This document shows, in pieces, positions 60,001 to 63,000 of a stretch of 64,000 nucleotides of DNA. The stretch's first letter is position 1. Every line of letters starts with the position of its first letter. The position numbers were made by a program. The stretch is taken from assembly GCF_013167455.1 (NCBI RefSeq), contig NZ_CP038328.1; one strand, 5' to 3'. The stretch is from Escherichia coli O157:H7 (lineage in GTDB: Bacteria; Pseudomonadota; Gammaproteobacteria; Enterobacterales; Enterobacteriaceae).

Positions 60001-63000
60001 CCAGTAAGCTGACATCAAGATAATACCCCTGTGACATCCCGCTAATATTGGTTGCACTACTGGCATCGGACTCATTCGCTGGGTTCAGGTTATTAGTGGC
60101 ACTAATACCGTCAATCAAATAGGCATTCTGATAGGGCGACGCACCGTGAATAGAGATTTTCTCCGGGCGAATATCTCCCTGGTTCAACGAGGTACTTTGC
60201 GTTGAATCCATGCGTACCGCAGGGTTGGTTCTCAGCAGATCGCTGATATTGCCATTCCCGGTCGGTAAACGCTCGATGCTTTCACTGGTGTAATGCGTGT
60301 TGCCGTTTACGGGTACAGGGACAGGAGCATAGACCGTCATCTCTTCAAAAAAATGCATGTACATGTTTTTGTCATCGACGGCCTGCGCCACATCAGCGCC
60401 ACATAAAATGACGCCAGGAATAAGAACTCGCTTCATTTATTTATATCTCCGTACAGCAGGGCTTTTATTGTTTTTATAAAACCGCGCTAATGTCACAAAT
60501 ATCATCGGCCAGGTTCCAGACACCGGGTTGATGTGTAACCATAATGACGCCGCTTGTGGGTAGTTTTTCACGCACTAGACGCAGTAAGCGGATAGCCTCT
60601 TGTTCCTCAAGATGAGAGGTAGTTTCGTCAAGAAATATCCATTTCGGACGTCGTAAAATTAATCGTGCCAGGGCGATACGTTGTTTTTCGCCGCTGGAAA
60701 GAATATCTCCCCAGCGATCGTGGTCATGAATACGCGCAGCCAATTTCCCAAGACCAACCTGATGCAGTACTTCGCTCAATGATTTATCGTCTACGGGCAG
60801 GGGAAGTGCTTTACAAATAATCTCTTTCAGTAAGCCGGTTTTGATTAACGGTGTTTGTGACACATACCAACTGTCGGCAGGAGAAGAAATATCACCTTTA
60901 AACCACGGCCAGCAGTGGGATAATGTTTTAAGCAGTGTGGTTTTTCCCGCACCAGAGTAACCTTTCAGTAATAGCCATTTGCCTGGCGAAACATGAAAGT
61001 TCAGGTTCTCTAATATGATCTTATTATCAGGAGTACGAATACTCGCGTCAGCCACTTGTACCGCATGTTGGCAATTTTTAGGCTTATTCGTAGGGCGCTG
61101 TTCGGTGAGTTGATGGAACTCATACAAGCGATCGATAACCGCAGCCAGTTCAGCAAGTTCATCATATTTATAAATAAACCAGCTTAGATTGTTCGATACC
61201 AGCATAAATGCCTGGCGCGATTTCATCAGTCCGCCCAGATTGATCTGCCCGCTAATAAACTGCGGCAATAACAGAAAGTAGGGAAGAACGCTAAGCGAGC
61301 GCGAATAAATATTCTGCCAGTAATCAAGCCACCGCTGACGATTCATTAAACGATGCCAGTTCTCTTTAATGGTATGAAAATTGTCGCTCAACTCCTGGCG
61401 TTGTAGAGACTCAGCATTGCTTAGCGCAATCAGTTCTGCCTGCTTATTATGCTGCACAAGATTAGTTCGAAATGTCGCTTCGCTACGTTGTTTTTCCACA
61501 TTAAGCGGACGAATACGTTTACCCACCTTATGGGTAAATAAAGTTCCACCGATCACAATGAGCACAACGGTATAGACCATATACCCCTGGATATTCCATT
61601 CTGTTCCACCAACAGTGAATGAGAGCATACCCGCGCTTTGCCAAAGAATAACGGTAAAGGTGATCAGCATGCTAAGTGACTGGATGAAGCCAAATGAAAG
61701 ACTGAGCGTTTTGCTGATCAGTAAGAGAATGTCTTCAGCGATACGTTGGTCAGGGTTATCTGTATTTTTATGCTCGCCGTAGATCTGCGTGAAGTAGTAG
61801 TTTTTATCTGCAAACCAGCGATTAAGGTAGTAATCTGTTAACCATTCGCGCCAGCGAATAGTCAGTAGTTTAATTAACCATGTTTTGTTTACGGATATTA
61901 ATACAAAGATCCCCAGCAGGGCAGGGAACCAAAGGACAAGCTGCCAAAGCTTATCGGTTTCTTTCTGGCTTAGCGCATTGAAAAAATCATTATTCCAGTC
62001 GTTTAACCAGACCTGAATTTTAACCACGCCAAGGATCATGGCGAGGATAATAATGATTAACAACACTGAAGTTTTATTATTCTTACGCAGCCAAAAGGGC
62101 TTCAGCAGACAGAGATACTTTGCTATCAACATACAAAACGTAATGGGAATGGTTATCATTAGCGAAAATTGATTGTGCCATCCAATGATTATCTATGGCA
62201 ATGATTTACTGATGAAATTTATTTAAGTATCATTTAACAATATGAAATATATAGAAATTTTTAATTTTCAGTGGTTATGGTTATGCTATTGATAATCAAG
62301 GGTATTGCTAATGCCCTGACGCATACCACGTAAGCCAAGATTTTCGCAAGGGAAGATGATGATGACGAAACACCCGACAGGAATTTATGTCGGGTGCCTT
62401 GTTAAGGTCATAAGAAGGAGGCTAAGAATGGAGCTAAAAGAGAGCGTTATTAATTATTCTCCATTTGTTTTGCAACATCCATAATGTGGTAAAGCGGTAC
62501 TCTGTTCTTGGCTAACTCCACCATGGCGTTCATATAAGGTACCATGGTTGAAAAAAGGATTTTATAACCTTCGCAAAAATAGGAAACAGTCTCATCGTTT
62601 ACTTTAGTAATACGATGCTTAGGGCAACCGCCATTGCAGATAGGTTTATATGCACATTGCTGACATTTCGCTGAAATCCGTTTTTTTTGCGCTGTCAGTT
62701 GTACACTGTTCATCGTTTTAAGTTCAGATTTATTAATGTTTCCAAGTTTGTACTGTGGATAGACAAAATGATCGCATTCGTAAATATCTCCATTACTTTC
62801 AACAACCAGATTATCCTTGCAGGACTCCTGGAAAATACAACTGGTATGCCCATTCCCCAAAAAACGGCTGACAAAGCTTTCAAACTGACGGATGAAAATT
62901 TCACCCACATCGTTTTTAACCCATTGCATAAAAATGGTTGACATAAACTTGCCATAAGCCGTGGGAGGCACAGAAAAATCAATGATACGGAATGTGTTCT

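Follow-up and report, generated by a model that had tools for sequence, protein, structure and literature searches.

The yddA-yddB-pqqL cluster of Escherichia coli O157:H7 raises the question of which sequence serves as its Fur operator, and how this operator is placed relative to the promoter and the start codon of yddA. Positions refer to the window, the whole stretch of 64,000 nucleotides that was analysed. An original prediction, made from the sequence of the window, took a Fur-box-like string in the yddA-ydeM spacer (AATGATTATCTATGGCAATGATTT) as the operator, and described the gene products as an ABC exporter, a TonB-dependent receptor and a periplasmic M16 protease that together resembled protein or ferredoxin-type iron uptake. 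Iron-dependent regulation was described as consistent with the literature, with the advice to verify it.

Fur control of yddA-yddB-pqqL is already known, as is the Fus-like analogy. Chen et al. 2007 (PMC2189734) predicted a Fur site cluster at yddA (2 sites over 25 bp), downstream of a sigma-70 promoter and centred at +8; this position corresponds to 62151 of the window, the centre of 62142-62160. Early microarrays were described there as showing no significant Fur repression. Subashchandrabose et al. 2013 (PMC3855560) predicted a Fur box at yddA and reported derepression in a fur mutant by qPCR, together with more than 30-fold induction in urine; in CFT073 grown in LB, neither dipyridyl nor added iron elicited a response of the 3 transcripts. 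Huja et al. 2014 (PMC4145685) likewise computed a Fur box at yddA. The published box, GGGAATGGTTATCATTAG, was found at 62145-62162 of the window, and is the same site as 62142-62160. In MG1655, Fur was bound upstream of the cluster, and yddAB-pqqL was assigned to the direct Fur regulon (Beauchene et al. 2015, PMC4676285); the same assignment was made for CFT073 by Banerjee et al. 2020 (PMC7157518, Tables S1 and S5), with a ChIP-seq peak height of 657 and fur-/wt RNA-seq ratios of 52 (yddA), 56 (yddB) and 42 (pqqL). At the protein level, PqqL increased with 2,2'-bipyridine and in urine (PMC6793856). The proposed iron- and Fur-dependent regulation was borne out by published ChIP-seq, fur-mutant derepression and the rise of PqqL under iron limitation.

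Materials and methods

The classical 19-bp Fur consensus (GATAATGATAATCATTATC) was used for match counts. No occurrence with up to 3 mismatches was found anywhere in the window; consensus matches were then counted at each window position, and a ChIP-derived matrix was built as well. The source of the matrix was 23 strong Fur ChIP-seq peaks of CFT073 (Table S5 of PMC7157518), and an EM motif search from random seeds in these 23 peak regions, with yddA left out, converged on AATGATAATCATTCTCATT, the Fur box. Two training regions were dropped, each containing no Fur-like site: "iroN" (1198978; 3.5 bits), whose coordinate falls within iroN, and "gpmA" (803233; 9.0 bits), whose coordinate adjoins tRNA genes. 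The final matrix comprised 21 sites with 19.9 bits of information, and the training sites scored 15.6-29.6 bits (median 22.2). Chance levels were estimated by expectation from local composition and by dinucleotide-preserving shuffles.

The matches ranked second and third in the window (501-519 and 24838-24856) were published Fur targets, and served as internal positive controls: the matrix is therefore valid on the DNA of the window. The site at 501-519 (AATGATTACCATTCCCATT; 20.8 bits) was located in the divergent pqqU(yncD)-yncE spacer, 83 nt ahead of the ATG of yncE (602), and shared 18 of 19 positions with the yddA box (see below); yncE is a Fur target with a ChIP height of 845 and 147-fold expression in the fur mutant (PMC7157518). 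The site at 24838-24856 (AACGACTATTTTTCTCATT; 19.8 bits) was located within the first ~10 codons of narU, to which a CFT073 Fur ChIP peak (height 125) was assigned (PMC7157518). narU and yddA were alike in having a Fur box at or after the annotated start.

A scan of the genome collection yielded few loci, mainly of Escherichia, and the diverged clusters were obtained by protein search and contig look-ups. The window and NZ_AP018488.1 (strain PV15-279; 1-35186) were not base-for-base collinear: the left end is offset by 199 bases and indels occur around window 35041-35186, so that annotation coordinates of NZ_AP018488.1 were not directly transferable.

Results

Gene layout

The segment 62000-62600 was 100% identical to several O157 chromosomes, and 5349 of the 5426 complete E. 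coli genomes contained it. yddA, yddB and pqqL were adjacent on the same strand, and the three-gene cluster was flanked by gadB and ydeM (Table 1). Pfam domains were ABC_membrane_2/SbmA_BacA and ABC_tran in YddA, a TonB-dependent receptor plug in YddB, and Peptidase_M16 and Peptidase_M16_C in PqqL. The predicted receptor and periplasmic M16 protease were thus recovered with both Pfam and PDB, while the term "ABC exporter" was doubtful for YddA, because this protein is of the SbmA/BacA type of ABC protein and its closest solved relative in the PDB search was 6TQE. We take 6TQE to be the mycobacterial importer Rv1819c.

Table 1. Positions of genes, Fur-like sites and promoter elements in the window.
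Feature	Position	Strand	Description	Basis
pqqL	55224-58007	minus	periplasmic M16 protease, FusC homologue	annotation, Pfam, PDB
yddB	58064-60436	minus	TonB-dependent transporter, FusA homologue	annotation, Pfam, PDB
yddA as annotated	60474-62159	minus	SbmA/BacA-type ABC permease-ATPase	annotation, Pfam, PDB
Probable true yddA start	62130-62132	minus	Met10 ATG	homologue alignment
Fur site cluster	62136-62166		core and weaker overlapping sites shifted by 6 bp	matrix
Core Fur box (operator)	62142-62160	minus	AATGATAACCATTCCCATT	matrix, consensus, ChIP summit, conservation
Annotated yddA start codon	62157-62159	minus	embedded in the Fur box	annotation
yddA-ydeM spacer	62160-62449		290 bp	
Predicted extended -10	62172-62180	minus	TGgCACAAT	promoter scan (9/12 matches, TG motif)
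Sequence of the original prediction	62184-62207	plus	overlaps the -35 and spacer of the predicted promoter	
Predicted -35	62196-62201	minus	TTGCCA, 18-bp spacer	promoter scan
Weak upstream Fur-like site	62282-62300	minus	CTTGATTATCAATAGCATA	10.0 bits
yneP	62362-62484	plus	small ORF, 40 aa	RefSeq annotation; Pfam YneP (E 1.6e-34)
ydeM	from 62450	minus		annotation
narU start codon	24866-24868	minus		

An Rfam scan of 62000-62600 gave a chance-level match only, and the spacer was therefore not explained by any known RNA element. yneP, which is encoded on the strand opposite to ydeM, overlapped the 3' end of the latter. A perfect 9-bp inverted repeat with an 8-nt loop (CACCCGACA / TGTCGGGTG; 62361-62386) was found just 3' of the ydeM stop (minus strand) and within yneP, and was mostly kept across the Escherichia loci. 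It may be the terminator of ydeM; the terminator scan did not call this repeat, and the T run after it was short.

Fur operator of the cluster

The top match of the matrix in the 64-kb window was the box at 62142-62160: 22.0 bits, close to the median of the validated sites, with p ~2.5e-8 per position and 0.003 such matches expected per 64 kb. The same score was reached in 0.06% of local shuffles. By consensus, the best count in the window was 15/19 at 62145-62163, and the same 15/19 was credited to 62142-62160. In terms of membership among Fur operators, this box matched at the level of validated sites, within the range of the training set. Weaker matches at 62148-62166 (7.7 and 7.3 bits) and 62136-62154 (2.5 bits) were in a 6-bp register with the core. 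Since the annotated start codon and the first six codons of yddA overlap with it, the box lies almost wholly outside the interval 62160-62449 in which the operator had originally been sought.

The published ChIP-seq data point to the same place. The CFT073 summit (1765013) is one base off the yddA start codon (1765014); CFT073 and the window are ~98% identical here, and the summit maps to window 62158, within the box, although ChIP-seq resolution alone leaves sites 40 bp apart inseparable. Together with the 42- to 56-fold increase of the three transcripts in the fur mutant, ChIP and expression data, which the original prediction had proposed as a check, were in favour of Fur control. The other proposed check, scoring with a Fur matrix, gave a divided result. 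The string originally quoted was present, 25-48 nt ahead of the annotated start codon, and a Fur box does exist nearby; the string itself matched the consensus at 12/19 positions and scored 6.4 bits (62184-62202), a level of which ~0.47 sites are expected by chance per 290-bp spacer and which occurred at least once in 47% of dinucleotide-preserving shuffles. All training sites scored at least 15.6 bits, and the real box is ~40 bases away. We concluded that 62142-62160, predicted in 2007 (PMC2189734) and 2013 (PMC3855560), and not the quoted string, is the operator of the cluster; the latter could at best act as a weak auxiliary Fur site, the latter being here the quoted string.

Several further repeats and Fur-like sequences were observed around the operator. 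A direct repeat, CAATGATT, was present within the quoted sequence at 62183-62190 and 62199-62206, 16 bp apart; it was retained in Escherichia species and absent from the locus with 83%-identical YddA, and could be due to chance or be a site of another factor. For the site at 62282-62300, ~0.1 matches of its score are expected by chance in the spacer, and its TTGATTATCAAT core was retained in the Escherichia loci. A Fur-like sequence within yddA, ~100 nt past the annotated start (62043-62064; 14/19 consensus positions, 9.0 bits), had orthologues of 10.8-12.7 bits in other Escherichia loci.

Conservation of the box

Promoter and box were identical in K-12, CFT073 and O157, and 4056 E. coli genomes carried the 40-mer 62172-62211 at 100% identity. 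Orthologues of the box in Escherichia species and L029 scored 21.4-23.4 bits, even with three bases changed. A fixed order was shared by Escherichia and the locus with 83%-identical YddA: TTGCCA/TTGCAA, 18 nt, the invariant TGGCACAAT of the extended -10, 11-12 nt, Fur box, 9 nt, and ATG.

Five diverged loci, with YddA identities of 83, 57, 52, 51 and 50% and one of them from Orbaceae, all had the order yddA-yddB-pqqL. In each of these 9-14 kb loci, the top Fur match of the whole locus was at most 100 bp upstream of yddA (18.8-26.9 bits); L025, L030, L031 and L032 each had a strong box in this range. The contig of L030 (1-13616; YddA 57% identical) encoded ParB, a ParA-like protein, Rep3, an integrase and an IS21 helper, and for this reason its cluster was read as a plasmid-borne, mobile copy, as this gene content suggests; its Fur box (25.7 bits) was 8 nt upstream of yddA.

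Two of the diverged clusters, L025 and L032, had a yddB-pqqL gap of ~300 bp, versus 44-56 bp in E. coli (according to which start of pqqL is taken), and extra Fur-like sites were found in this gap: 10413-10431 in L025 (16.2 bits) and 10495-10513 in L032 (13.2 bits). These may belong to a separate iron-regulated pqqL promoter. Another locus, L021 (JARKOR010000108.1), was filed as a "Candidatus Nanosynbacter" MAG; its yddA and upstream DNA were 99% identical to E. coli K-12, and this filing is almost certainly due to mis-binning of an E. coli contig.

Predicted promoter and probable translational start of yddA

The Fur box starts 12 nt past the predicted extended -10 element. The latter showed no change in any of the Escherichia loci or in the locus whose YddA is 83% identical; the -35 element was invariant in Escherichia and read TTGCAA in L029. 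A candidate for a second upstream promoter (ATGATA, 18-nt spacer, GTAAAT; -10 at ~62204-62209, overlapped by the quoted sequence) was below the scan threshold. A literature search found no experimental transcription start site of yddA and no Fur footprint at this promoter.

The annotated start of yddA (62159) is probably wrong, as judged from sequence comparison, and the true start is probably the ATG of Met10 (62132-62130), because of the starts of homologues, in-frame stops, and differences between K-12 and O157. When YddA was aligned with eleven homologues, all but one started at the residue aligned to Met10, without the 9-residue extension; Met10 corresponded to the near-invariant residue 1 of homologues at 83-37% identity. 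In L029, the ATG embedded in the box was followed by an in-frame TAG after 6 codons, and in-frame stops were also found just upstream of the starts in L025, L030 and L031. Of the few differences between K-12 and O157, two (62138 and 62135) are within the 9 nt between the box and the Met10 ATG; in the annotated frame these would be two adjacent substitutions, F8L and C9R, in a protein that is otherwise ~99% identical. No Shine-Dalgarno sequence was found before either ATG. It is therefore fairly likely that the annotated ATG is an artefact that forms part of the Fur-box motif (AATGAT), that translation starts at Met10, and that the box is located in a ~33-nt leader without a Shine-Dalgarno sequence, in a promoter-box-start architecture that is conserved in diverged clusters including the plasmid-borne one. 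Published descriptions have the box overlapping the translational start, whereas the present comparison suggests that the annotated start is wrong and the box is in the leader.

Discussion

The reading that we prefer, with a probability of roughly 0.9, is that iron-loaded Fur represses the operon through the box at 62142-62160, just downstream of the predicted promoter. Iron-loaded Fur would bind this minus-strand box, probably with two dimers that overlap across ~62136-62166. With transcription starting near 62165, a position derived from the predicted promoter and its 9/12 match, the box would occupy ~+6 to +24 of the transcript, and bound Fur would be situated within the footprint of RNA polymerase, where it may keep polymerase from binding or from escaping the promoter. 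Under iron limitation, or upon loss of fur, the box would be vacated and transcription of the three genes would rise ~50-fold. The products would constitute a Fus-like system for protein import, with YddB in the outer membrane, PqqL in the periplasm and YddA as the inner-membrane ABC protein.

It is very unlikely that the string originally quoted (62184-62207) acts as the primary operator. Its 12/19 consensus matches, its AATGATTATC, a partial Fur half-site, its overlap with the predicted -35 and spacer, which is a typical location of a repressor, and its position within ChIP-seq resolution of the summit do speak for such a role; however, the score is at chance level and below that of every training site, and the Fur-like core is changed to GACAAT in L022 (2.7 bits), GTCAAT in L023 (1.6 bits) and ACTACT in L029 (-3.2 bits), while the neighbouring box holds at least 21 bits. 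Furthermore, all published predictions point to 62142-62160, not to the quoted string. A milder version, in which Fur nucleates on the strong box and spreads over the -10 and -35 to a low-affinity auxiliary site in the quoted sequence, so that repression is strengthened, deserves more credence and is still doubtful. The start of the quoted site is exactly 42 bp, or seven hexamers, from that of the core box (62184 versus 62142); five matches of at least 6.4 bits were found in 62130-62449, and as many occurred in just 0.4% of shuffles; the 40-mer 62172-62211 is fully conserved among the E. coli genomes mentioned above; and in E. coli, Fur commonly protects 30-103 bp and binds to clustered sites (PMC2189734). 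On the other hand, the promoter elements inside the quoted sequence account equally well for its conservation within E. coli, its Fur-like bases are lost outside E. coli, and Chen et al. counted 2 sites over 25 bp at yddA, and no more (PMC2189734).

The strong box could also be regarded as arising incidentally from the codons of the YddA N-terminus, with Fur control being indirect, as it covers the annotated start and codons 1-6. This is hardly credible: homologues do not have these N-terminal codons, the box of L029 scores 23.4 bits although a stop closes the reading frame, the ChIP summit is on the box, and equally strong boxes of the diverged clusters are in clearly non-coding DNA.

Compared with the classical Fur promoters of fepA-fes, fhuA, cirA, entS-fepD and fhuF, the yddA box has the same 19-bp motif, with a median score, and the cluster shares with them weaker overlapping sites at 6-bp steps, a peak in ChIP-seq and strong derepression upon mutation of fur. 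Unlike in these promoters, the yddA box is off the -35 and -10 hexamers, between promoter and start codon, and the ChIP height (657) is several-fold below that of siderophore promoters (~1500-5300).

The likeness to ferredoxin-type uptake proposed in the original prediction agreed with the PDB matches and had already been published (PMC6793856): YddB and PqqL are structural homologues of FusA and FusC of the Pectobacterium Fus system. YddB matched the ferredoxin receptor FusA (4ZGV, E 5.9e-81), and 6OFR is YddB itself; PqqL matched FusC (6B03, 6B05 and 6BRS, E ~1e-59), and 6OFS and 6OFT are PqqL itself. Both Fus (FusA, FusB, FusC and FusD) and yddA-yddB-pqqL contain an inner-membrane ABC protein and show iron- and Fur-regulated expression. 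Unlike Fus, the three-gene operon of E. coli has no dedicated TonB homologue (FusB); Fus-like clusters vary in having such a homologue (PMC6793856). Grinter et al. 2019 (PMC6793856) solved the structures of YddB and PqqL, located PqqL to the periplasm, showed that bipyridine induces it, and classed the cluster as a Fus-like protease-associated import system; deletion of yddB or pqqL did not impair growth in iron-limited LB (PMC6793856).

Since Fur control and the similarity to Fus were already published, the present results matter little beyond correct annotation. The operator is now pinned to 62142-62160 instead of the sequence quoted originally; the annotated start of yddA probably needs a correction by nine codons, which, together with the conserved placement of the box within the leader, is only a modest addition. 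The retention of a Fur box upstream of diverged, and even plasmid-borne, copies of the cluster supports an iron-related role of this system.
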